From the IMG/VR virus record IMGVR_UViG_3300005056_000006: 45,616 nucleotides of DNA; one strand, given 5' to 3'. A program made the translations under genes and the position numbers. The notes under the pieces were generated by a model. The model had not been told where the DNA came from, ran no database searches, and saw only the letters and a program-made list of their open reading frames with translations. Each line of letters begins with the position of its first letter. Position 1 is the stretch's first letter. The stretch comes from a virus. Below are positions 2,748 to 45,616 of this stretch, piece after piece.

Positions 2748-2774
2748 GTTAATTTCTATTTAACATAATAAAAT

Positions 2775-11451: not shown

Positions 11452-11481
11452 TTGTTTAAGTTTTAATTTGTTAATACCCTA

Positions 11482-11511
11482 CAAATATACTACAATACTT
11501 TTAATACACAA
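11482..11511 (-). promoter_or_regulatory. Promoter TTG-N19-TATATTTG
   Basis: TTG at 11511..11509, 19-nt spacer, box at 11489..11482, about 31 nt before ATG 11451. Confidence 0.5.
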
Positions 11512-11573
11512 CTATAATACAAAGAAAGTTTAATAATAAATGCTAACTATCTGATTTACAATTAGAATAATTT

Positions 11574-22387: not shown

Positions 22388-22408
22388 ATCTATCGTTTTA
22401 ATTCTCTA

Positions 22409-22439
22409 CAAATATACAACTCTATTCGTTATAACCAAA
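22409..22439 (-). promoter_or_regulatory. Bacteroidota-type promoter TTTG-N19-TATATTTG (putative early promoter)
   Basis: Minus strand has TTTG at 22439..22436, a 19-nt spacer, then TATATTTG at 22416..22409. Lies right after the genome's strongest terminator and before the first early ORF. Confidence 0.6.
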
Positions 22440-22500
22440 CATTATAACGATAAATAGTAAAGAAATAATAAGTTTGTAATGTTTATAAGGGTTTGAGAGT

Positions 22501-22537
22501 GAAAATAAAAAACCTTACTAAATTCATAGTAAGGTTT
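22501..22537 (-). terminator. Intrinsic terminator ending the late/lysis transcription unit
   Basis: Perfect 11-bp stem (22510..22520 / 22527..22537), 6-nt loop, then UUUAUUUU on the minus strand. Confidence 0.75.
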
Positions 22538-22592
22538 AATTGATTGAAATAGTGTATTTCAGATACTTGACGGTTTGTAAATATACAATAAA

Positions 22593-27782: not shown

Positions 27783-28709
27783 TTAAAAGTTTCGTTTAAT
27801 ATTGTTTTCTTTTCTGGCTGTAAATTTAATGTTATAAATTGAATTTTTGTTATTTTCTAGCTGTGTTTTTTCAAAATCAACAGGATAAACTTCTATTCTT
27901 CTATATAATGCTTCTGCTAAAATCTTGTAATCTGTTATTTTTATACTATTCGATAAAGAAATATTCTTAGTTAAATTAGCCGTAACAACTCTAGGCAACA
28001 TTTTAGTTCTCAATTCATAATTCTCTATAACCTTATCTTGAATCTGTCTCCATTCGCTAAATGTAGTCTTGTATTTTTTAATTATCAACTCCTCAACATT
28101 CTCGATAAAATCCCCTTTAATCCTAAAACTTGAATACAATTCTAGCCCATCATGGTCGATTAAATTTCCATTAACTGTACCGTTCTGTATTATTTCCAAT
28201 CTTACCGTCTTATTCGCTGCCTTTTCGCTGTAAAATTGTAAGTTATAATTCACACTTTCAAAAAGAGTCGCAACCCCTATTATAGTGTTGGTAGATTTAA
28301 TTTGATAGCTTCCATTTCCAAAAGCTAATATGACTAACTTCCAATCTAATAACATGGATACGTATAATTGTTGTTCAACGCTGTTGCCGTTAAAAAATCC
28401 ATTCGTAAAAGTGCCGTATGTGTTGTTATTTAATAAAGTAACTGAAATGCCATCCTTAAACAACTCCATTGCAATCGAATCTGAACTAACAAATCTTTTA
28501 AAGGTAAATCTTGTTAAGTCATTTTTCCACCAATCAGTTGTATTTGAGCCAAAAACACACTCATTATAAGGCTTTTCTAATTCGCAAAATTGAATATCTG
28601 GAGTAATTACTAAAGGTATTTCTGGCAATGAAGTTACAGCAATTTTTGTAGCCATTGCGTTTAAACTAAAAAACGGTGCTGAATTTGTTATATTTTTTAT
28701 TAATGTCAT
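27783..28709 (-). CDS. Tail/baseplate protein
   Basis: 308-aa tracked ORF with a 4-nt overlap with the upstream ORF. Confidence 0.5.
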   Translation of the reverse strand: MTLIKNITNSAPFFSLNAMATKIAVTSLPEIPLVITPDIQFCELEKPYNECVFGSNTTDWWKNDLTRFTFKRFVSSDSIAMELFKDGISVTLLNNNTYGTFTNGFFNGNSVEQQLYVSMLLDWKLVILAFGNGSYQIKSTNTIIGVATLFESVNYNLQFYSEKAANKTVRLEIIQNGTVNGNLIDHDGLELYSSFRIKGDFIENVEELIIKKYKTTFSEWRQIQDKVIENYELRTKMLPRVVTANLTKNISLSNSIKITDYKILAEALYRRIEVYPVDFEKTQLENNKNSIYNIKFTARKENNIKRNF

Positions 28710-31129
28710 TCTAATATTTTATTAGTTCCATCTTCTAATATTTTAGGCGTGCCATCTTCTAATACTTTATTAGTTCCTCCCTCTGGTGGCGTTCCGCTTT
28801 GTGCAGGGTTTCCAATTTCTCCAGAAAAATTATAGTCAATGCCTGCTGTTATTTGATTTCCATCTATAACGCCCTCTGTAACCAAGTTGCCACTAACCAA
28901 AGATAAAGATAATTGTTGACCATCATTAAATATATTGTTAGTAGGAGGCGGATCTACGCTACTCAACTCGTGTAGTTGCTTTCCTGTCTGCTCTGATATT
29001 TCAATTCTATGAATGCCCCAAAAAGAAGATATATCCGTTAAAGGAGTTTTAAAAGTCCAAGTAATCCTAAATAAAGTATCTGAGCCTGTTAATGGTTGAC
29101 CGTTTAAAGGTGTCATTGTCGCATTATCGAACAACTCTATAACTTGTGTGAAGTCAGGCACTATATTTCCGTCTTTATCATAATCATAAATAGTAAAATC
29201 GGGGGTCAAAAATAAATAATCAGTATCTCCAGATTGTCCTAATGTGTTTACACCTGTTAAATTAAATGCGAATATCATTTTTATAGCATAGCCATTTATT
29301 AAAGAGTAATTACTAGTCTTTAAATTTTGGTTGTTGTTAGGTTTTGAAACGTCTACAAAAGAACTGTCAACGTCTGGATTAGCAACCCAATCCTCCCAAC
29401 TAAACTTAATAGCGTTGGTAAAATCATAAACTCCTAAAGTTTCTCCAGTTAATGTTATTCCGTTTTTTTCACTACCTGCAATTAATGGATAGTTTCTTGA
29501 ATCTACAGAGTTAAATACTTGTATTCCATTTGATATTAAAGAGCCTAATTGATAACTGTAACTATCTAATTCAAAATATGAATTTTTACTTGAATTGTAA
29601 GCAACTAATAAAACATCAAAGCTATTTAGAAAAGCATTTTTTGAATGGTCTAAAGTAAAAGTTCCTTTAATACCTAACCCGTGTTCGTTCCATCCGTTCA
29701 CTTGTGTAAATCCTAAAGAGGTGCTAAAATCTTCTGTATGTGGGTAAAATCTAGTATCAAGAGTTATTAAACCGTCAATATCTGCACTAATATCAAACAC
29801 TCCATCAACACGAAGCATAACGGCATCAGAATTGGCAGCAGAAATAGAACTATCTCCAACTTCTAAGCCAAATATAAACTGGCTTTCGTCTGTTAGTCTT
29901 AGTTTTTGAATAGTAGTTAAAGAAGTTTCAAAATCAATTGTTATAGTAGAGCCACTATCTACAACTTGTAAATTATTAAGTAATCCAGAACCTGCGACCA
30001 AACCATCGTTAGCAGTTGCGAAAATATTATCATACATAAAATTCACTTCAAAATCAGTAGATGTATTTTCAACTTCCGCTTGAAATCTAGGTAAGTAACT
30101 AAAGTAAACGCCTATATTATCATTATTTGTAAACGATCCTAAAATCTTATTTACAACAATAGTCACTTTAGTAGTTCCATTCAATAATACACCGTCAGAG
30201 CTATTCAATGCCGTATCTGTGTATGTTACAGTACTCACTTGATAATTACTATCTAACCCGTTAAATGCTTCGTTAAAATCACCTACAGAACCTTTAATAT
30301 TATCAACCTCAAAAGGTTTACTAGTGTTCGGGTCTGATATTACCGTTCTAAAATCTCCACCAAATACATATTTAAAAGAGTTAGACCCTAATAAATCATC
30401 AAGAGGAGTGTTTACGTCCGTTCCTGCATTATAATAAGGAACTATAAATTCGTGCGTTATCTCAAATAACTGCTCTTCAACTTCACTACCAAAACCTTGA
30501 TATTGAACACTTGCAGAACCATTTTTCCAACTGTTAGGAATACCCAAAGCTTCCATTTGAACGGGAACATTTATATCTCTTGGCATATTCGCCCCTATTT
30601 CATCTAATGAATAAAACTCTTGATTTTCATTTGTTACGCTTGAAATATTTGTAAAAGTATCTCCATTTTCTGGCGTTCCATATTTATAAAAAAGAGATGT
30701 TAAAGGAGTTGTTCCGTATATTATACTATTTGAATTAGTTGTTGTAGCAGAAGGGAAAAGCGGTGAAGCAGCAGCCGTAAATGTCATTAAATCATTATCT
30801 ACATAAGCAATAGTTGCTGTATGAGTTGATAATATTAACCCAGATGAATCTCTTCTATGAAAAATAATAGTGTCACCTATCCAAAACCCATCTGTTAAAA
30901 ACTTTCCGTTTGTCCATCTTATTTCTAAACTAGTAGTCTCAAATGCAAATGGAACTCCTAAAGATGATTGAGAAAGCCAACTAACACCAACTTGTTGAAC
31001 AACTCTAAATTTCTGCATAACTAACCCTGCTAAATTGTTAGTAAATTCAGATAGACTCGTGCTAAAAGTAGGGTCATTAACCCATTGCTTATAATACTTC
31101 GCAGTTATACGTCTTACATTAATAGCCAT
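28706..31129 (-). CDS. Large tail tip/baseplate protein with a C-terminal octapeptide repeat
   Basis: 807 aa. Position downstream of the tape measure and distal tail ORF. Confidence 0.55.
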   Translation of the reverse strand: MAINVRRITAKYYKQWVNDPTFSTSLSEFTNNLAGLVMQKFRVVQQVGVSWLSQSSLGVPFAFETTSLEIRWTNGKFLTDGFWIGDTIIFHRRDSSGLILSTHTATIAYVDNDLMTFTAAASPLFPSATTTNSNSIIYGTTPLTSLFYKYGTPENGDTFTNISSVTNENQEFYSLDEIGANMPRDINVPVQMEALGIPNSWKNGSASVQYQGFGSEVEEQLFEITHEFIVPYYNAGTDVNTPLDDLLGSNSFKYVFGGDFRTVISDPNTSKPFEVDNIKGSVGDFNEAFNGLDSNYQVSTVTYTDTALNSSDGVLLNGTTKVTIVVNKILGSFTNNDNIGVYFSYLPRFQAEVENTSTDFEVNFMYDNIFATANDGLVAGSGLLNNLQVVDSGSTITIDFETSLTTIQKLRLTDESQFIFGLEVGDSSISAANSDAVMLRVDGVFDISADIDGLITLDTRFYPHTEDFSTSLGFTQVNGWNEHGLGIKGTFTLDHSKNAFLNSFDVLLVAYNSSKNSYFELDSYSYQLGSLISNGIQVFNSVDSRNYPLIAGSEKNGITLTGETLGVYDFTNAIKFSWEDWVANPDVDSSFVDVSKPNNNQNLKTSNYSLINGYAIKMIFAFNLTGVNTLGQSGDTDYLFLTPDFTIYDYDKDGNIVPDFTQVIELFDNATMTPLNGQPLTGSDTLFRITWTFKTPLTDISSFWGIHRIEISEQTGKQLHELSSVDPPPTNNIFNDGQQLSLSLVSGNLVTEGVIDGNQITAGIDYNFSGEIGNPAQSGTPPEGGTNKVLEDGTPKILEDGTNKILE
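28709..28780. repeat. 3 x 24-bp tandem repeat encoding (L/V/I)LEDGTxK octapeptides at the C-terminus of the 807-aa tail protein
   Basis: Units at 28709..28732, 28733..28756 and 28757..28780. Confidence 0.85.
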
Positions 31130-37454: not shown

Positions 37455-38348
37455 TTATAAAGTATGTAATGTAACTGAATCTTCTAATCCTGTTTTAGAC
37501 ACTGTTATTTGCATAATATCTGTTAATGTTTGTGCTGCAAATGTTAGTACGTAATTACCAGGAGTTGGCTCGGTAACTAATGTAATTGTTACGGCTAAAC
37601 TAGTAGATGTATTGAATGCTGTAAAGTCAACCAATACAAGACCTTCAACTTTATCTAAATCGTTAATAAATCCACTTCCGTTATCAATAGTTAAACCTAA
37701 TGTAGTAGTAGAAGTTGCTCCTGTTGTTACTCCAATTTCTAATAAACCTTGCTTTCTAAGTAAATTCACTCCAGAAGCAGGATCTAAAACAACTAAGTTG
37801 CCATCGATAACTAAACTAGAGAAATCAAAAGAGATTTGAATTGAACTCGATTTTTGTGTGTCAGAACCCCAAACGATTATTGCAGCGTAAGTGTTGGCTT
37901 CAACCTTGATAGGCTCAACGAAACCTGCTGTGTTTTTTTCTCCAATTACACGCCCATTTTCATCAACGATAAATACGCTCATGTCTACATCTTCCCAAGC
38001 TTCTAATTTTTGAAGTATTGCAGAAGTTCCACTCGGCCTAGTGAATGTTGCTGTACGAATACCATCTCTGTTAAATTCTCTTGTTCCATCTGGATAAGTG
38101 AAAAACTCGTTTTCAGCTCTCTCTGTTGTTACTGCTTTTAAATCCATTAAAGGATACCATCTATCTAATTTAGATGAATCATTTATATTTGCATCTATAA
38201 TTAAATCCGTTAAAGGGATTGCAGGATCAATTGAAGGAATATTTCCTGCTTGATTGGTAGATGAAACCAATATTAATCCTTTTGCTTTTGCTAATAGTGC
38301 TCTACAGTTCGATTCGCCTGTGTTGCCTAAACTTGATATACAACTCAT
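37455..38348 (-). CDS. Putative major tail (tube) protein
   Basis: 297 aa, T/S/V-rich. Directly upstream of the chaperones. Preceded by the conserved double-hairpin leader. Confidence 0.5.
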   Translation of the reverse strand: MSCISSLGNTGESNCRALLAKAKGLILVSSTNQAGNIPSIDPAIPLTDLIIDANINDSSKLDRWYPLMDLKAVTTERAENEFFTYPDGTREFNRDGIRTATFTRPSGTSAILQKLEAWEDVDMSVFIVDENGRVIGEKNTAGFVEPIKVEANTYAAIIVWGSDTQKSSSIQISFDFSSLVIDGNLVVLDPASGVNLLRKQGLLEIGVTTGATSTTTLGLTIDNGSGFINDLDKVEGLVLVDFTAFNTSTSLAVTITLVTEPTPGNYVLTFAAQTLTDIMQITVSKTGLEDSVTLHTL

Positions 38349-38388
38349 TTTTTTAAAGTTTTAGTTTGTTAATTATTATTATTTATTT

Positions 38389-38423
38389 GAAGCACAGCTT
38401 CTTAGACTTTTGAACACAGTTCT
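38389..38423 (-). promoter_or_regulatory. Conserved double-hairpin leader motif, copy B (before the major tail gene)
   Basis: See copy A. Confidence 0.5.
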
Positions 38424-38433
38424 TATTTTTAAT

Positions 38434-39642
38434 TTATATCTCTTCTGCAAACTCGTATGTTACACCACCCTTTGTTGCTCCTAAATTTTCTCGGTGCATT
38501 GTGAATATAAACATATCTCCAGGCGTTTGATAAATACTCGTTCTCCCTTCAAATAACGCAGAAGTTGCGTAAGTTCTCTCTTTTCCAACCCTACAAGTAA
38601 ATATTAAATCAGCCTTTGCAGTATCAAATGATAAAGTTCCCGCTGTTTGTGTCATTTCGATTGTTTCTAAATGTCCATCGCCTATATCAGACCAAGAACT
38701 ATTACCTTCTGTGATTGCTGAAAAATCTCTTGTAACCCAAATTCTACAAATTGACTTTTCATCTGAAAAGAAACTCGCTAACAACGATAAAGTATCTCTA
38801 GTATTTATTAGTCCTCCAACGGTTAATTTACTTCTAACCGCAACAATTGGCTGATTCGCACCTGTATATGCTGATTCTCCTACACTATTAGTTATCCCAG
38901 CAGACCCGTAAGTTTTACCGTTGGTTTCTCCGTTCTCGCTTGTAACATCTACACATCCGCATTGAATAACTACGTCATCCCCTTGATTCTCACATTCAAA
39001 TGCAATAGGATTTGCTGGATTAAACATCGTAAGCTCCGTTCTTGTATTTAAATATGTAATTGTTTTGACTAGCTCAAGGTTTATAAAAAATTTATAATTA
39101 CCTACACCACGCCATTGCATCTGAATATCAAACAAATTACCTTTCGATAAATCAACACCAATAGGTATAGTTATTTCATGCTTATCATCAACTGTACCAC
39201 TAGCCGTTGTAGTCGTTCTAACAACTGCATAAAGAGTTCCACTTTCTAAAGAAAAGAAAGCTCCTGATTCGTCAGTAAAATAACCCCATCGCCTATTACC
39301 TAAAGCCGATACGGATGGTAGGAAAGCTGATATTGCATAGTGAAAACCTCTATTTGGTTCATATCTTGGATTTCTAAACGTTCTTAAATATGTTAAATCA
39401 CCATTGGTTGCTCCAGAAGTTAAATTCAACTTCCCGTCAATACTTGATGCATTAGTGAATGATGAGGAAATAACACTATTGATAGTTTCTTGCCAAGTTG
39501 TTACGGGTACATTATAAGTAAACATTCCGTGAAATATAGAATTGTCTAAAGCTACTTTCGGAATCCCCCAAGCTGTACGTCCTAAGTCATTTGTCGCTAA
39601 ACTAACCTCGTCTATATTTATATTTAAAGTAGTATCTGCCAT
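38434..39642 (-). CDS. Virion structural protein, function unassigned
   Basis: 402 aa, beta-rich. TAATG-coupled to the upstream ORF. Confidence 0.55.
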   Translation of the reverse strand: MADTTLNINIDEVSLATNDLGRTAWGIPKVALDNSIFHGMFTYNVPVTTWQETINSVISSSFTNASSIDGKLNLTSGATNGDLTYLRTFRNPRYEPNRGFHYAISAFLPSVSALGNRRWGYFTDESGAFFSLESGTLYAVVRTTTTASGTVDDKHEITIPIGVDLSKGNLFDIQMQWRGVGNYKFFINLELVKTITYLNTRTELTMFNPANPIAFECENQGDDVVIQCGCVDVTSENGETNGKTYGSAGITNSVGESAYTGANQPIVAVRSKLTVGGLINTRDTLSLLASFFSDEKSICRIWVTRDFSAITEGNSSWSDIGDGHLETIEMTQTAGTLSFDTAKADLIFTCRVGKERTYATSALFEGRTSIYQTPGDMFIFTMHRENLGATKGGVTYEFAEEI

Positions 39643-41545: not shown

Positions 41546-42577
41546 TTAAACAAAAGCAAATGCCATCATTGGCGTTTCTCCTGCCGTACTCATAGGAGCA
41601 TGAACATAAGCAACATCAACTGAAAATTCACTTTCCAATTTAACATCTTGTAAATAACCTCCAATTGAAGAAGCATCCGCACTTGTTTCGTAAGTGTGTA
41701 CAGCATACTGTAATGCATCAATAGGATTAATCAATGATCCAAAGTTTGCAACAGTTGTGTTAACACCTCTTACGTTTTGAATCGGAATCCAATTTGGTGC
41801 AGCAACTGAGCCATCAGGAACTACAATCCAATAACCTTTAGCATATGCAGAAACTAATCCAGCAGCAGCAGCAGTTAATGTAATGTCATTTACAAACGTT
41901 ACACCACCCATTTGGAATGCTGTATTTGTTGCGTTTGTTGCTCCATTTGCAGCCAACACTTTGAACTTGCTAAATGCGATAGGGTCACAAACTACTGTAT
42001 GTCCGACACCTTGATATTCGTTAATGTCCATAATAGACTTAGTAACGTCAATTGCAGTATTACCATATAAAGTTTCTGTAATCTCGAAAGTGTCATCTGT
42101 TGCATCAAATGATCCAAATGATGTTGATACGTTTACTCCCGAACGATTAGCAAATAAATAACCAGAAGCAGCAGCTTCCAATCCGTTTGCCATGTTAGCA
42201 ATAAAGTTTTCCATTTTGTTTGCATGCATATCTTCTAGAGACATTACTTTGTTATCCGCTTCTTTCAAAGATGATACAAACTTGTCTGTATAAGTTGCCC
42301 ATGTTGGTGTTAATACTCCAGAATCTCCCTGAACTCCTGTATGATTGTGCGATCTAGCACTACCTAAAGCTCTAAGTTGTTTAATATCGTAATTAAACTC
42401 TGTTACTGGTTTATCCTCTCTGTCTCTTGTTTCAGAAGCCTGAGGTATTAATAATGCTGTGTTTCTTAAAAACATCTTGTGTACTACTGGTTCTCTAAAG
42501 CGTAACTCAGCAGCATTGAAGGCTCTAGTTATCTTTACTTGAGATTTTACTAGTTTAGCCGTGTCAAAATTTGCCAT
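41546..42577 (-). CDS. Major capsid protein (HK97-fold type presumed)
   Basis: 343 aa, A/G/T/V-rich, typical size. Has its own promoter box and long leader. Confidence 0.6.
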   Translation of the reverse strand: MANFDTAKLVKSQVKITRAFNAAELRFREPVVHKMFLRNTALLIPQASETRDREDKPVTEFNYDIKQLRALGSARSHNHTGVQGDSGVLTPTWATYTDKFVSSLKEADNKVMSLEDMHANKMENFIANMANGLEAAASGYLFANRSGVNVSTSFGSFDATDDTFEITETLYGNTAIDVTKSIMDINEYQGVGHTVVCDPIAFSKFKVLAANGATNATNTAFQMGGVTFVNDITLTAAAAGLVSAYAKGYWIVVPDGSVAAPNWIPIQNVRGVNTTVANFGSLINPIDALQYAVHTYETSADASSIGGYLQDVKLESEFSVDVAYVHAPMSTAGETPMMAFAFV

Positions 42578-42612
42578 TTGTATTTTGGTTTTAATGAATG
42601 AAAATTGTTAAT

Positions 42613-42648
42613 GAAGCACGGCTTCTTAGACTTTCGAATACAATTCGA
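42613..42648 (-). promoter_or_regulatory. Conserved double-hairpin leader motif, copy A (before the capsid gene)
   Basis: 30 of the first 34 positions are identical to 38389..38422. GAAGC-N3-GCTTC plus a second stem with one compensatory change. Confidence 0.5.
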
Positions 42649-42653
42649 TGGTA

Positions 42654-42661
42654 CAAATATA
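42654..42661 (-). promoter_or_regulatory. -7 box TATATTTG upstream of the capsid gene (no -33 TTG)
   Basis: Motif match. Lies downstream of terminator 42712..42742. Confidence 0.45.
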
Positions 42662-42662
42662 C

Positions 42663-42698
42663 AATTATTATGTTAAATAGAATTATTATGTTAAATAG
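42663..42698. repeat. Perfect 18-bp tandem duplication AATTATTATGTTAAATAG x2
   Basis: 42663..42680 equals 42681..42698. Confidence 0.9.
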
Positions 42699-42711: not shown

Positions 42712-42742
42712 AAAAAAACCTACCAAATTAATGATAGGGTTT
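42712..42742 (-). terminator. Intrinsic terminator (module copy 1, weaker stem)
   Basis: Same 27-nt sequence as 43834..43860. The stem needs a bulge. T-run on the minus strand. Confidence 0.5.
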
Positions 42743-42844
42743 AAGTAAAAGAGCAATCTGTTAATTCAGCGTTTTAAACTCCCTAGTACTAAGGAAGTAC
42801 CAATTACTTTTCGTTCATCTTCAAGCAGGATATAAACATAATGA

Positions 42845-43360
42845 TTATTTAATTACCTTATTGACTCTATTATCAGAATCCCTAGTTAAAGCACTCTCTA
42901 CAGCAAGCCAACAGTCTTTCATTTCTTTAATTGACGTTCCGTATCTCATGGCGTAGTCAGTCATTGTTTCGCCTCTTTTTGGTGGTCTACTTGGTTTATT
43001 CATAAAGTCTGGGTAATCATATTTGGCTATACAATTCTTCTCATAAGCTAGTCTTGCATCAAACGCTCGATTATAATTATCAATACTCTCTTGAGTTGGT
43101 ATGTTAGCAACATTAATAAAATTAGGAGCTGCATATTCATTTACTATTATTGAACTAATCCTTTTACCTCTTTGCTCTACCCAAAACCTATTACTGATAA
43201 GTGTTTTTTGATTTACCAGTCTTATACCTCTCCATTTTAGCTTACCCTTTGTAATATCTCCCTTTATTATAGGAACTGCTAAGTTTCTCAAAACATATTC
43301 TAAGAACTCCTCTCTTTCAGAATCAAATGATTTAATAAGCTTTTCTATTGTTTTTTCCAT
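42845..43360 (-). CDS. Hypothetical protein (accessory island)
   Basis: 171-aa tracked ORF. Confidence 0.55.
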   Translation of the reverse strand: MEKTIEKLIKSFDSEREEFLEYVLRNLAVPIIKGDITKGKLKWRGIRLVNQKTLISNRFWVEQRGKRISSIIVNEYAAPNFINVANIPTQESIDNYNRAFDARLAYEKNCIAKYDYPDFMNKPSRPPKRGETMTDYAMRYGTSIKEMKDCWLAVESALTRDSDNRVNKVIK

Positions 43361-43371
43361 TTCTTTTAAAA

Positions 43372-43662
43372 TTAATTAAAGCACCATAGATGCTCATCGT
43401 TATTTATCTTGTTAGTATATTCAATTTTATACTTATAATTAACTTTTGGTTTTTTATCTATAAACCACCTTCCTAATGAGTCAAACCAACCATTTCCAGC
43501 AAATGAAACACAGTTAATTCTATGTTGTTTTTTAATCATTCTTATTTGCTTACCTCCGCTCTTAACTTCTTCTGAATATCTAATTGCAGCCTCTTGTATT
43601 TTAATCTCATTTTCTCTTAACAGACTCATATCAACTGATGGTAACATCATATTACATACCAT
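43372..43662 (-). CDS. Hypothetical protein (accessory island)
   Basis: 96-aa tracked ORF about 20 nt after the leader terminator. Confidence 0.5.
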   Translation of the reverse strand: MVCNMMLPSVDMSLLRENEIKIQEAAIRYSEEVKSGGKQIRMIKKQHRINCVSFAGNGWFDSLGRWFIDKKPKVNYKYKIEYTNKINNDEHLWCFN

Positions 43663-43682
43663 AATCTAAAACTTTTTATAAC

Positions 43683-43724
43683 AAAAAAAAGCCCCGTTCT
43701 TTTGAAACGAGGTTAGGGGGCTTT
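43683..43724 (-). terminator. Leader terminator: GCCCC...GGGGC hairpin plus U8
   Basis: GC clamp 43691..43695 / 43717..43721, inner GTTC-TTTT-GAAAC stem, A8 on the plus strand (43683..43690). Confidence 0.65.
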
Positions 43725-43805
43725 AAAAAGGTATTATCCTTTTATAAAATACTATATGTCTTTATTTGTTGTTATCTATAACCTCGTTTCAAAAAGTAGA
43801 TAACA
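43700..43805 (-). promoter_or_regulatory. Leader RNA element: 9-bp hairpin presenting a 16-nt loop sequence complementary to the terminator 5' arm
   Basis: 43770..43778 / 43797..43805 form the stem. 43779..43794 is the exact reverse complement of 43700..43715. Confidence 0.55.
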
Positions 43806-43808
43806 TTG

Positions 43809-43816
43809 CAAATGTA
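43809..43816 (-). promoter_or_regulatory. -7 box TACATTTG
   Basis: Motif match, between two terminators. Confidence 0.45.
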
Positions 43817-43832
43817 GTATTAATTATTGGAT

Positions 43833-43863
43833 AAAAAAAACCTACCAAATTAATGATAGGTTT
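43833..43863 (-). terminator. Intrinsic terminator (module copy 2)
   Basis: AACCTACCA / TGATAGGTT stem with one mismatch, loop AATTAA, then a T run (8) on the minus strand. Confidence 0.65.
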
Positions 43864-43966
43864 TAAATATAAGTGTGTAACATAATTATTGCACTACTAT
43901 TGATTGTTAGATTGTTTGTTGCACATTAGTTGTATATAGCCACGTGTTAGCAAACATTAAAACGTT

Positions 43967-44194
43967 TTACATCATTTGCTGTGCTGCATCTTCCATTCCT
44001 GCAAAGTATGCTATCTTTTTTTGCTCTTCCAACTCTTCTTTGCTAACACTACCTAAAGCAACATTAACTTCGTTTTTGTGGTTCTCGCAAAGGTGCGTTA
44101 TTCTGCTAATCAAATCAGCTTTATTAATTTTATAACCGCTTTTTCTAAAGCAATCATCTGCTAAACTTTCTATTGTCATTGTATCGTAGTTCAT
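43967..44194 (-). CDS. Hypothetical protein (accessory island)
   Basis: 75-aa tracked ORF. Its 5' flank is near-identical to that of 44248..44535. Confidence 0.5.
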   Translation of the reverse strand: MNYDTMTIESLADDCFRKSGYKINKADLISRITHLCENHKNEVNVALGSVSKEELEEQKKIAYFAGMEDAAQQMM

Positions 44195-44247
44195 AATCTT
44201 TGTAGTTTTTAATCGTTAACGTTCTTTAGCTTTGTCATTAGCGGTAA

Positions 44248-44535
44248 TTAAACATCATATTGTGGTGAGCAATAACATTTGCCATTTTTCTGCTCATCAT
44301 CAAGGCAGCAATCGCAATAGTTACTATTTAAGTCTTGCCGATCCTCCTTGGTTAGGGCTTTGTATTGTTCTGCTAAAGAACTACCGATAACATTATCTAT
44401 AGGTAATGCTTGCCCTTGCTTTATCTCGTTTAGGGAGTCATTAATTCTTTTCTTAATATCTACCGTACTATATCCAACAACATCTAAGTAAGAGTCTATG
44501 CTTTTTAATGTTGCAATTGTTATTTTGTAATCCAT
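44248..44535 (-). CDS. Hypothetical Cys-rich-tail protein (accessory island)
   Basis: 95-aa tracked ORF with C-terminal YCDCCLDDEQKNGKCYC. Confidence 0.5.
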   Translation of the reverse strand: MDYKITIATLKSIDSYLDVVGYSTVDIKKRINDSLNEIKQGQALPIDNVIGSSLAEQYKALTKEDRQDLNSNYCDCCLDDEQKNGKCYCSPQYDV

Positions 44536-44589
44536 AATCTTTTATAGTTTTTAAGTTCGGGCAATCACTACCCATAGTTTAGCTATTAA

Positions 44590-44630
44590 TTAAAAAACCC
44601 CTAAGCATCCGACAAGACTACTTAAGGGTT
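44590..44630 (-). terminator. Intrinsic terminator (also a leader terminator for promoter 44668)
   Basis: 10-bp stem with one mismatch (44596..44605 / 44621..44630), then a U-rich tail (UUUUUA) on the minus strand. Confidence 0.6.
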
Positions 44631-44667
44631 AGTATAATTTCTTTAGTTACTGTCGGTTAACTTATTG

Positions 44668-44697
44668 CAAATATACAATAATTATTAAAAAGGACAA
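44668..44697 (-). promoter_or_regulatory. Promoter TTG-N19-TATATTTG
   Basis: TTG at 44697..44695, 19-nt spacer, box at 44675..44668. Confidence 0.5.
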
Positions 44698-44939
44698 TCT
44701 TTTGAAATGGTTTTATCAACTTTAAAATTAATAATACCAGTCATTGACTCTAATTGACTCATTGATAACCTCTTTTGATTTAATAAATAACCATTATGAT
44801 TTCCCACCTTAATAATATTAAGCTCTTTTAATGGAAGAAATCTTTTACCTATCATTTGAGGTAATCTGAAAAGTATTTTATATTTCCATCCGTATAGATA
44901 GCCTTTAAAAGTTATTCCATATTCATAATTTATAATCAT
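44685..44939 (-). CDS. Hypothetical protein (accessory island)
   Basis: 84-aa tracked ORF. Confidence 0.45.
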   Translation of the reverse strand: MIINYEYGITFKGYLYGWKYKILFRLPQMIGKRFLPLKELNIIKVGNHNGYLLNQKRLSMSQLESMTGIINFKVDKTISKDCPF

Positions 44940-44986
44940 ATTTTACATATTTAGTGTTGTTTATCCGCTTGTTAGGGTGCATTAAG

Positions 44987-45091
44987 CTACACCTTAACAA
45001 TTTTTCTTTCTCCTTTGCAGTGGGCGTAACCTATATCAGATACTACTACCCAAAATCTACCTACTTTAATCTCGTACTGTGTTCTTTTCAT
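44987..45091 (-). CDS. 34-aa ORF bracketed by a 16-bp inverted repeat (uncertain)
   Basis: Hand-translated: MKRTQYEIKVGRFWVVVSDIGYAHCKGERKIVKV. Confidence 0.2.
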   Translation of the reverse strand: MKRTQYEIKVGRFWVVVSDIGYAHCKGERKIVKV

Positions 45092-45210
45092 AATTTATAC
45101 AATTAACGCACCCTAACACTGGCTAAAATTAATAGCCTAATTAGGTCTTGCTGTAATTTTATTGGTCAGTAATTAACGGCTACTAACCTTAACCTAAGCA
45201 TTAATTAAAA

Positions 45211-45218
45211 CAAATGTA
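45211..45218 (-). promoter_or_regulatory. -7 box TACATTTG
   Basis: Motif match downstream of terminator 45261..45294. Same 10-mer (CAAATGTACG on the plus strand) as at 6201. Confidence 0.35.
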
Positions 45219-45319: not shown

Positions 45320-45616
45320 CTATACTTTTAATGTTCCTGCGGACATCCTTTCCTCCATTTGTTTAAGAAACTCTGGACTGTTTGGATCAGTATTGTTGTC
45401 TGCCATTTCCTCTATAAACTTCTCTATAGATTGTGTAGCATCAGCACCTCTAGAGTCTCCTCCTCCTGCTCCTCCAGAAGCTCCTTTTGTGTATTGTGTG
45501 TTTTCAGCAAAGAAAGTACCTACAATCTCTTTTAAGGGTGTTAACTCTAAAGTAGTAGAATTCTTTAATGGGTTACCATCTGCTCCGATACCAAACACTT
45601 GACCATGCTCGTTAAC
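45320..45616 (-). CDS. 3' part of the wrap-around scaffold-like gene (45518..45616 duplicates 1..99)
   Basis: The tracked ORF 45320..45598 begins inside the duplicated sequence. The frame is continuous with 630..1. Confidence 0.6.
   Translation of the reverse strand, partial: VNEHGQVFGIGADGNPLKNSTTLELTPLKEIVGTFFAENTQYTKGASGGAGGGDSRGADATQSIEKFIEEMADNNTDPNSPEFLKQMEERMSAGTLKV
45518..45616. repeat. Terminal direct repeat, copy 2
   Basis: Base-by-base comparison, 99/99. Confidence 0.97.

Follow-up and report, generated by a model that had tools for sequence, protein, structure and literature searches.

The genome of an uncultured phage carries the same short two-hairpin element twice, once upstream of the major capsid protein gene (copy A) and once upstream of a gene that probably encodes the major tail protein (copy B). 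This arrangement raises the questions of whether the element marks both genes in related phages, whether it acts as DNA or as RNA, and what it might do for the genes behind it. The window, by which we mean the whole stretch of DNA analyzed (45,616 nt, IMG/VR record IMGVR_UViG_3300005056_000006), holds a complete and circularly assembled genome of about 45.5 kb, with bases 1-99 repeated at 45518-45616 and all genes on the minus strand. Recognizable genes include those for a terminase, a portal-sized protein, the capsid, a tape measure protein, DnaB and a Rad52-type protein, and the promoter boxes are of the Bacteroidetes type, TAnnTTTG. In a BLAST comparison with GenBank phages the sole DNA match was a 44-nt terminator hairpin common to Cellulophaga phages, while the best cultured match to the capsid, annotated as the major capsid protein of Pseudanabaena phage Pan5, was 32% identical. 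Judging from the promoter type, the DNA match confined to Cellulophaga phages and this distant capsid match, the phage is an uncultured siphovirus, probably of a flavobacterial host.

The identity of the gene behind copy B was approached through its surroundings and its predicted fold. Directly downstream of it come a gene that matches a PHROGs "tail protein" family and the tape measure gene, and the AlphaFold model of its product (pLDDT 79) matches proteins named "major tail protein", with low TM scores. Sequence searches with this protein returned nothing decisive. Its position together with the weak match of the structural model suggests that the product is probably the major tail (tube) protein.

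Two copies of a tandem-hairpin element

The two copies fall within a common 37-nt block (42612-42648 and 38388-38424) with four differences, and a repeat search returned 35 nt of it as a pair at 89% identity (38388-38422 versus 42612-42646; pair D16). When 116 nt around each copy were aligned, similarity was restricted to the element and the flanks were at background level. Allowing up to three mismatches, the 23-mer AAAGTCTAAGAAGCNGTGCTTCA occurred at two sites only, with none expected from 100 shuffles. Both copies consist of two short hairpins with NGU triloops joined by AAAGUCUAA (Table 1). The four differences comprise a compensatory pair in hairpin 1 (U-A to C-G), a change at the base of hairpin 1 and another at the variable first position of loop 2. 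Under covariance model R1, copy A scores 52.3 bits (E = 1e-9) and copy B 51.9 bits.

Table 1. Positions of the leader element, the neighboring genes and the nearby DNA signals in the window; letters of the two copies are given in the mRNA sense.
Feature	Position	Strand	Details
Major capsid protein gene	41546..42577	-	phrog_7231 "virion structural protein", head and packaging; behind copy A; ATG at 42577
Gene for probable major tail (tube) protein	37455..38348	-	C-terminal Ig-like domain; behind copy B
402-aa virion structural gene	38434..39642	-	phrog_1645; immediately upstream of copy B
Copy A of leader element	42613..42648	-	hairpin 1 42648-42634 UCGAAU-UGU-AUUCGA; linker AAGUCUAA 42633-42626; hairpin 2 42625-42613 GAAGC-CGU-GCUUC
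Copy B of leader element	38389..38422	-	hairpin 1 38422-38412 GAAC-UGU-GUUC; linker AAAAGUCUAA 38411-38402; hairpin 2 38401-38389 GAAGC-UGU-GCUUC
TATATTTG, Bacteroidetes sigma-A "-7" box of the capsid promoter	42654..42661	-	from TAnnTTTG scan
Terminator-like hairpin and T-run	42719..42738	-	repeat family D2; closes the upstream unit
Two direct copies of 14-mer CTATTTAACATAAT	42667-42680, 42685-42698	-	just upstream of the capsid promoter box
Third copy of CTATTTAACATAAT, inverted	2756-2769		adjoins the portal promoter

Much of this had been noticed in a sequence-only reading of the locus, which counted 30 of 34 positions shared between the copies, described both as folding into two hairpins and pointed to a T-A to C-G replacement. 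The count agrees with a comparison by eye, in which the copies differ at positions 8, 23, 27 and 31, and folding reproduced the two hairpins. The replacement is present (GAAT-ACA-ATTC versus GAAC-ACA-GTTC) and is a genuine compensation, of the same kind as those seen across relatives. Other details needed correction. The structures had been recognized correctly and their order had not, since the mRNA is read from the minus strand, which puts GAAGC-NGU-GCUUC behind the variable hairpin. Copy A spans 71-36 nt before its ATG instead of the 65-30 nt given, and the 75-41 nt given for copy B is accurate with respect to the tube gene. The statement that the genome has no other intergenic similarity of this kind does not hold, as there are three copies each of a terminator hairpin and of a 14-mer box, and two of a promoter region.

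Within this single genome the case for a selected structure would be thin. One compensatory pair among four differences is, taken alone, only suggestive (p about 0.03-0.05 by our own estimate). The hairpin energies are weak (-6.5 to -8.5 kcal/mol, z = -1.4 and -0.65), and the thermodynamic stability of both copies is by itself unremarkable. Support for the structure comes from covariation among relatives, not from folding energy.

Covariation and placement of the element upstream of capsid genes

Public metagenomes contain 188 homologs of the capsid protein, of which the nearest is 68% identical. A search of viral contigs with the single capsid sequence gave no match; an alignment-based capsid scan yielded 80 related viral contigs (960 kb), to which the nearest relatives were added by look-ups. 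In the 130 nt upstream of the capsid genes, nearly all of them showed a TAnnTTTG box followed directly by two, sometimes three, hairpins, and exactly two hairpins lay within the first 55 nt in 51 of 65 distinct capsid leaders. Within the subgroup nearest to our phage, NGU triloops and an AAGUCU linker go together with stems that are wholly different from one phage to the next, and distant members carry GGUA, GGUAAU or GGUAUA loops. Across the 65 distinct leaders, 95 of 120 loops contain GU.

Eleven near-group leaders were aligned with MAFFT. Of the cells in this alignment 98.2% are paired, and double-sided changes occur in all 10 base pairs. The observed pairing was reached by none of 500 shuffles, and pairing with slid partners ranged from 25 to 61%. 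A covariance model built from these 11 leaders recovered three non-seed leaders, namely L085/L086 and L089 with the full motif at about 51 bits and L008 weakly at 19.7 bits. With these included, the resulting set of 14 leaders has 98.6% of cells paired, again with double-sided changes in all 10 pairs. In the phage genome itself the covariance model gave two matches at 52 bits, the next best scoring 11.6. Among the 80 related loci it matched 10, with a maximum of one match per locus, all on the coding strand and just upstream of the capsid gene. Pairs of GGUA-loop hairpins were found at -68 to -80 relative to the capsid ATG in 21 of the 80 loci, and two lay further out, at -149 and -247. The remaining matches to the GGUA pattern in these loci were scattered, mostly within genes, and none preceded the tube gene.

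The turnover of the stems is complete, and the unpaired positions are kept: GU is invariant in both loops, G is invariant in the linker and AAGUCU is nearly so, with the three NGU triplets of the element spaced 10-12 nt apart. Two of the relatives (L012 and L013) have a third hairpin, and one of these (L013) has a second AAGUCU linker as well. RNAalifold, applied to whole near-group leaders starting at the promoter and including coding sequence up to +27, returned exactly these two helices and found no conserved pairing of the hairpins with the downstream leader or the early coding region. An AGCCGU/ACGGCU pairing present in some near-group members was rejected as not conserved. G·U pairs occur in the element helices of related leaders. 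The sense strand folded better than the antisense strand in 53 of 68 distinct leaders (means -9.4 versus -6.2 kcal/mol, Wilcoxon p = 2e-8), a result that we treat as supporting evidence only, as the sequences are related and base composition may contribute. Taken together, the covariation, the conserved loops and linker, the G·U pairs and the strand asymmetry establish the element as a selected structure of the sense-strand RNA. It displays the general hallmarks of structured cis-regulatory RNA, with covarying helices and a conserved position relative to capsid genes.

Searching the whole genome with the 4227 covariance models of Rfam 15 gave no match at gathering thresholds. At the two sites, with E up to 10, only unrelated families at chance level appeared (best E = 1.1), none of them overlapping copy A. 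Our literature search found no description of the element, and a 2023 survey reporting 10,006 candidate structured RNAs in IMG/VR (PMC10690425) might already contain it in its catalogue. We conclude that this is a new RNA motif, not in Rfam, of a familiar kind, that of cis-acting leader structures on phage late mRNAs. An exact-pattern scan of viral contigs for AGTCTAAGAAGCNNNGCTTC gave four matches, all inside coding sequence and attributable to chance. Scans of metagenomes and genomes with the pattern AAAGTCTN{2,4}GNAGCNGTGCTNC, which serve as a specificity control only, found a complementary hairpin 2 in 92 of the 240 matches listed and hairpin 1 or the full motif in none of these 240.

The layout of the capsid leader was then read against promoter geometry. 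Positions -12 to -5 are those taken up by the TAnnTTTG box of Flavobacterium psychrophilum (PMC9723704). With this spacing the capsid transcript is predicted to start at about 42649, and hairpin 1, which begins at 42648, would open at about +2. The first hairpin follows the box by 0-8 nt in 52 of 65 leaders (mode 5), and a minority of relatives deviate, with hairpins at a greater distance from the box or a first hairpin that runs into it. The terminator-like hairpin upstream indicates that a new transcription unit begins at the capsid promoter. From the promoter-box geometry and this terminator we infer that copy A forms the 5'-terminal structure of the capsid mRNA. Between hairpin 2 and the ATG lies an unstructured A/U-rich leader of 31-48 nt. 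The late operon headed by the capsid leader is about 20 kb long, and no other predicted promoter in the genome precedes the element.

The copy upstream of the tail gene

Copy B begins 11 nt after the stop codon of the 402-aa gene and has no TAnnTTTG box upstream, which indicates that it does not lie at the 5' end of a transcript. Neither in the 80 loci nor in the closest relatives did we find a second copy before the tube gene. In the closest relatives (66-69% identity of capsid and tube proteins) only 19-39 nt separate the preceding gene from the tube gene, which leaves no room for the element. Three relatives have a different, pseudoknot-like element before the tube gene. The arrangement at copy B recurs identically in a second sample (L332).

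The 402-aa gene preceding copy B gave no tblastn match in the 80 related loci. Its homologs, numbering more than 400 and 57-69% identical, sit in unrelated phage contexts. It is a horizontally shared gene and an insertion relative to the closest relatives. We looked beside its homologs for an origin of copy B and found none. Given the single copies in relatives, the missing promoter and the adjoining inserted gene, copy B is a lineage-specific duplication of the RNA module alone, tied to the gene insertion before the tail gene.

The sequence-only reading had presented the motif as a conserved mark of both the capsid and the tail gene, and it had proposed to scan related phages with a covariance model, absence upstream of capsid or tail genes in relatives counting against it. 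The scan of the 80 loci divides this proposal: upstream of capsid genes the element is kept, and upstream of tail genes it is absent. The relatives are single-copy, with the element always before the capsid gene, and a conserved association with both genes can no longer be maintained.

Possible roles of the element

The explanation that we favor, tentatively and as no more than quite possible, is that the element is a cis-acting leader module that stabilizes or processes mRNA and is probably recognized by a factor. The module comprises two stem-loops with Y-NGU-R triloops about 10 nt apart, with a conserved single-stranded AAAGUCU between them, followed by some 35-40 nt of unstructured A/U-rich leader and the start codon. 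At the capsid gene it would form the extreme 5' end of a late mRNA made from a host-type sigma-A promoter and would raise the post-transcriptional yield of the gene behind it. Its 5'-terminal hairpin could shield the transcript from decay that depends on the 5' end, and the conserved loops and linker may be read by a factor, either a binding protein or a nuclease with its cut in the linker, shortly before hairpin 2. A foreign structural gene of 1.2 kb was inserted ahead of the major tail gene in this phage, with a promoter-less copy of the module placed between the two. There, copy B may act internally, either by processing and stabilization, so that the tail-gene segment acquires a protected 5' end of its own, or as a second docking site for the same factor. 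The RNA-level roles that the sequence-only reading had put forward, namely stability or processing and an aid to translation in a system lacking Shine-Dalgarno sequences, fit this evidence, unlike the DNA operator that it had also considered.

Classically, mRNAs are shielded from 5'-end-dependent decay by a hairpin at the 5' terminus with no more than one or two unpaired nucleotides before it, as in the E. coli ompA 5' UTR and the T7 gene 10 leader. Our element would resemble both in having a hairpin a few nucleotides from the 5' end of a very highly expressed mRNA (for copy A, a stem at 42648 against a start at 42649 predicted from the promoter) and an unstructured translation-initiation region behind it. 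With ompA it further shares two hairpins with single-stranded segments between them, and with T7 the major capsid gene. Such 5' stabilizers act largely independently of sequence. Here, in contrast, loop GU and AAGUCU are conserved across relatives whose capsids are 52-68% identical, one copy is internal, without a promoter box, and the host phylum initiates translation without Shine-Dalgarno pairing and reportedly relies on other nucleases, RNase G and RNase Y, having neither RNase E nor RNase J. Stabilization alone therefore under-explains the conservation, as a plain 5' stabilizer needs neither two hairpins nor conserved loops and linker. The invariant GU loops and linker G, the near-invariant AAGUCU, the additional hairpins and linker in L012 and L013 and the retained internal copy are not explained by plain shielding and instead suggest recognition by a factor.

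The processing variant of the favored explanation has a counterpart in the RNase Y site of the Staphylococcus aureus saePQRS operon, where an intergenic helix guides a cut 6 nt upstream of it, stabilizing the downstream part and shifting ratios within the operon (PMC5449607). Bacteroidetes are reported to have RNase Y, RNase G and PNPase, and to be without RNase J and RNase E (bioRxiv 10.1101/2021.04.08.439066). The geometry here would be compatible with such a site, the invariant linker G sitting 5-8 nt before hairpin 2 and copy B being intergenic in a long operon. The two also differ. The guiding helix in saePQRS is 24 bp long against the 5-bp stem of hairpin 2, a host RNase Y is assumed from phylum-level reports and copy A would already be 5'-terminal. 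Several observations run against the stabilizing or processing module in general. The hairpins are weak, a minority of relatives deviate in the spacing from the promoter box, and none of the 59 phage proteins scanned was a candidate RNA-binding protein. Copy B, not being at a 5' end, would require an additional processing step, and relatives express the tube gene without the element.

A wider reading would be that Bacteroidetes phages carry a dedicated leader RNA signal (tandem GU-loop hairpins, with AAGUCU in a subgroup) which a putative sequence-specific factor reads, driving very high expression of the major virion proteins, and that this signal is portable, as its transplantation before the tail gene would show. 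We consider this reading, portability included, doubtful at present; if true, it would amount to a new class of post-transcriptional late-gene control and provide a practical expression part for use in Bacteroidetes. How the phages of this phylum reach their huge capsid output without Shine-Dalgarno initiation and with unusual RNA-decay enzymes is very poorly understood, and a 36-nt leader element conserved in structure across dozens of uncultured phage genomes provides a mutable handle on that output. The element was moved as a unit to a second highly expressed gene in one lineage. For flavobacterial genetics it is a candidate for a portable part that governs expression or stability. It also adds a well-supported motif, absent from Rfam, to the cis-regulatory RNAs of phages. 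Should it be a generic 5' hairpin only, the element would be ordinary. The capsid-plus-tail pattern is peculiar to one phage, and the structure is taxonomically broad.

A different function at the RNA level, somewhat unlikely in our view and yet the most serious competitor, is that of an RNA operator, at which a sequence-specific RNA-binding protein of phage or host would control translation of the major virion genes. The two GU loops and the AAGUCU linker would then constitute a bipartite or tripartite site, and binding would either recruit or position ribosomes on a leader lacking a Shine-Dalgarno sequence or repress translation until, or unless, the product is consumed (autogenous control). 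The pattern of conservation speaks for such a site: loop GU and linker G are invariant over variable stems, the NGU triplets keep their 10-12 nt spacing, GU loops recur throughout the family, and L012 and L013 carry a third hairpin, to which L013 adds a second AAGUCU linker. An operator would also work equally well at an internal site, unlike a 5'-end shield. With hairpin 2 ending 31-48 nt ahead of the ATG, the structure stops near the upstream border of a 30S footprint, and an unstructured stretch about the size of a ribosome remains. In distant relatives, a segment 20-30 nt ahead of the start codon is an alternative pairing partner for the loop and 3' arm of one hairpin, suggestive of a switchable fold, but the near group, including this phage, shows no alternative pairing. 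Among 59 phage proteins scanned (50 with Pfam, 9 with PHROGs), none had an RNA-binding domain, and sigma factors, RNA polymerase and antiterminators were likewise absent; the missing RNA-binding domain speaks against an operator. Complementarity of AAGUCU and GGUA to the 3' region of the 16S rRNA did not appear convincing. The targets of CsrA/RsmA offer the closest parallel, with two short hairpins, a conserved G-containing loop motif and a set spacing in a 5' leader, which suggests recognition by a dimer. They differ in the loop, which is GGA as opposed to NGU or GGUA here, and in overlapping the ribosome-binding region, which our element does not. CsrA is not known from Bacteroidetes.

Whatever the mechanism at copy A, copy A alone might be functional and copy B a recent neutral by-product of the recombination that brought in the 402-aa gene, with the pattern of the two most abundant proteins a coincidence. 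We regard this as rather unlikely. It would accord with the relatives lacking a copy before the tube gene and with the horizontally shared gene adjoining copy B. Moreover, four differences are too few to demonstrate purifying selection, as at most one change in the 23-nt core has p ~0.1 under drift by our own estimate. On the other hand, the copied segment ends exactly at the edges of the element and excludes the promoter. Of the four differences, two make up the compensatory pair and one more affects the loop position that is variable anyway. Copy B equals copy A in its score with the family model, and its distance to the start codon is the same as in capsid leaders.

Processive antitermination, in the manner of lambda nut or HK022 put, would place one site behind the late promoter and another further down the late operon. 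Several features recall such sites. The element is phage-borne and promoter-proximal, it occurs twice in this genome, it heads a late operon of about 20 kb, and it combines a conserved single-stranded box with small hairpins whose loops are conserved and whose stems covary, as in nut, the hairpins moreover being two in tandem, as in put. We nonetheless judge this very unlikely. A consensus scan of the coding strand from 42650 to the strong terminator at 22537-22510 found no convincing intrinsic terminator in between, which leaves little to antiterminate and does not give the element the promoter-to-terminator position of nut and put. Relatives have a single copy, and the linker AAAGUCUAA is not a boxA, nor do the UGU and CGU triloops resemble the GNRA-like pentaloop of boxB. 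The two long stem-loops of HK022 put, which have conserved internal features, add up to about 65-70 nt, and the hairpins here are far smaller (triloops on stems of 4-6 bp, 36 nt for the whole element). The proteins scanned included none resembling N, Q or NusG.

The least probable reading, which we can hardly sustain, is that the palindromes are double-stranded DNA sites, serving either as the late-regulator operator suggested by the sequence-only reading or within a special late promoter. In its favor, each of the two hairpins forms a perfect DNA palindrome in this phage, and copy A overlaps the initially transcribed region of a promoter. Across relatives, however, the half-sites are unconserved (all 10 stem positions vary with compensation) and the center and spacer are kept, the reverse of what an operator would show. 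The G·U pairs would read as A·C mismatches on the complementary strand, and folding favors one strand instead of being equally symmetric on both. Copy A follows the promoter box, no promoter precedes copy B, and the portal promoter has no hairpins.

A better candidate for a DNA-level signal is the conserved 14-mer CTATTTAACATAAT, which lies upstream of both late promoters and has three exact copies in the genome. At the portal promoter the box is present, the hairpins are absent and the leader is 22 nt long and unstructured, so the DNA-level late signal and the hairpins are separable modules. The 14-mer is likely a late-promoter or regulator site that acts on DNA, separate from the hairpins. 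The box also occurs upstream of the capsid gene in six related contigs (L005, L006, L085, L086, L088 and L089), and in inverted orientation upstream of the portal-sized gene in L005, L085 and L089.

The capsid and portal promoters share a 14-mer

An exact 14-mer, CTATTTAACATAAT, likely a late-regulator or extended-promoter site, adjoins both the capsid and the portal promoters of the window (table). It also precedes the capsid gene in six related phage loci with a homologous capsid gene (L005, L006, L085, L086, L088 and L089), arranged in L006 as an inverted repeat; the inverted portal-side copy is additionally found in L005, L085 and L089.

Features of the window and of related loci
Feature	Coordinates	Strand	Remarks
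14-mer, two direct copies	42667-42680, 42685-42698	minus	adjoins capsid promoter
14-mer, one inverted copy	2756-2769	plus	adjoins portal promoter
275-aa head-module gene	4-630 + 45323-45616		conserved; across circular junction
TAnnTTTG boxes, three	45211, 44668, 43809	minus
Terminators, three	43864-43837, 43712-43692, 42738-42719	minus
Terminator hairpin (AAAAAAACCTACCAAATTAATGATAGG...), three copies	42712-42751, 43834-43873, 22507-22546
402-aa virion structural gene	38434-39642		phrog_1645
Tandem repeats, 3 x 24 nt	28709-28784		86% identical; end of tail region
Conserved element before tube gene, three relatives	L009:11140-11176, L011:10997-11032, L013:4816-4847		different from that of the window

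Genome ends and the region upstream of the capsid promoter

The ends of the window overlap by 99 nt (1-99 = 45518-45616), and the window is therefore a complete circular assembly. The head-module gene that spans the resulting junction is omitted from the ORF listing of the window. Between this gene and the capsid promoter lie about 2.5 kb in the window (42740-45211, minus strand), whereas the corresponding distance in relatives is 150-400 nt. Besides small ORFs, this stretch contains Bacteroidetes-type promoter boxes (TAnnTTTG) and terminators; a transcript of about 110 nt, predicted from the box at 43809 to the terminator ending at 43692, would enclose no ORF and is a possible small RNA. The only match linking the window to cultured-phage DNA is in the repeated terminator hairpin, 44 nt of which share 91% identity with sequences of the Cellulophaga phages phi4:1 and phi17:2.

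Leader elements of relatives and the tube-gene surroundings

In the capsid leaders of more distant relatives (L017, L018, L022, L032, L037, L044 and L072, among others), the loop and 3' arm of a GGUA hairpin could pair with a complementary stretch that lies 20-30 nt ahead of the start codon ATG. This complementarity co-varies among leaders (GGUAAUGC/GUAUUAUC and GGUAAAGUU/AACUUUAUU), and the resulting alternative fold, which competes with the GGUA hairpin, might act as a switch. No comparable alternative pairing was seen in the capsid leaders of the window's subgroup. The element preceding the tube gene (probable major tail protein) in L009, L011 and L013 resembles an H-type pseudoknot: it is a hairpin, and shortly after it comes a stretch complementary to its loop (for example, ACCGUU-AAAGCAUCCCA-AACGGU ... 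UGGGAG).

The 402-aa structural gene is missing from related phages, yet over 400 homologs, 57-69% identical, occur beside ClpP-type head modules in the genomes of unrelated phages; it is a horizontally shared insertion.

Other repeats

Each of the two blocks of non-structural genes in the window is headed by a TATATTTG box that lies within a 49-nt similarity (11471-11519 and 22398-22446, 71%). The two boxes probably represent early or middle promoters that have flanking sequence in common. The 24-nt tandem repeats extend across an overlap of two ORFs, in which an 807-aa ORF (28706-31129) ends and ORF 27783-28709 begins.
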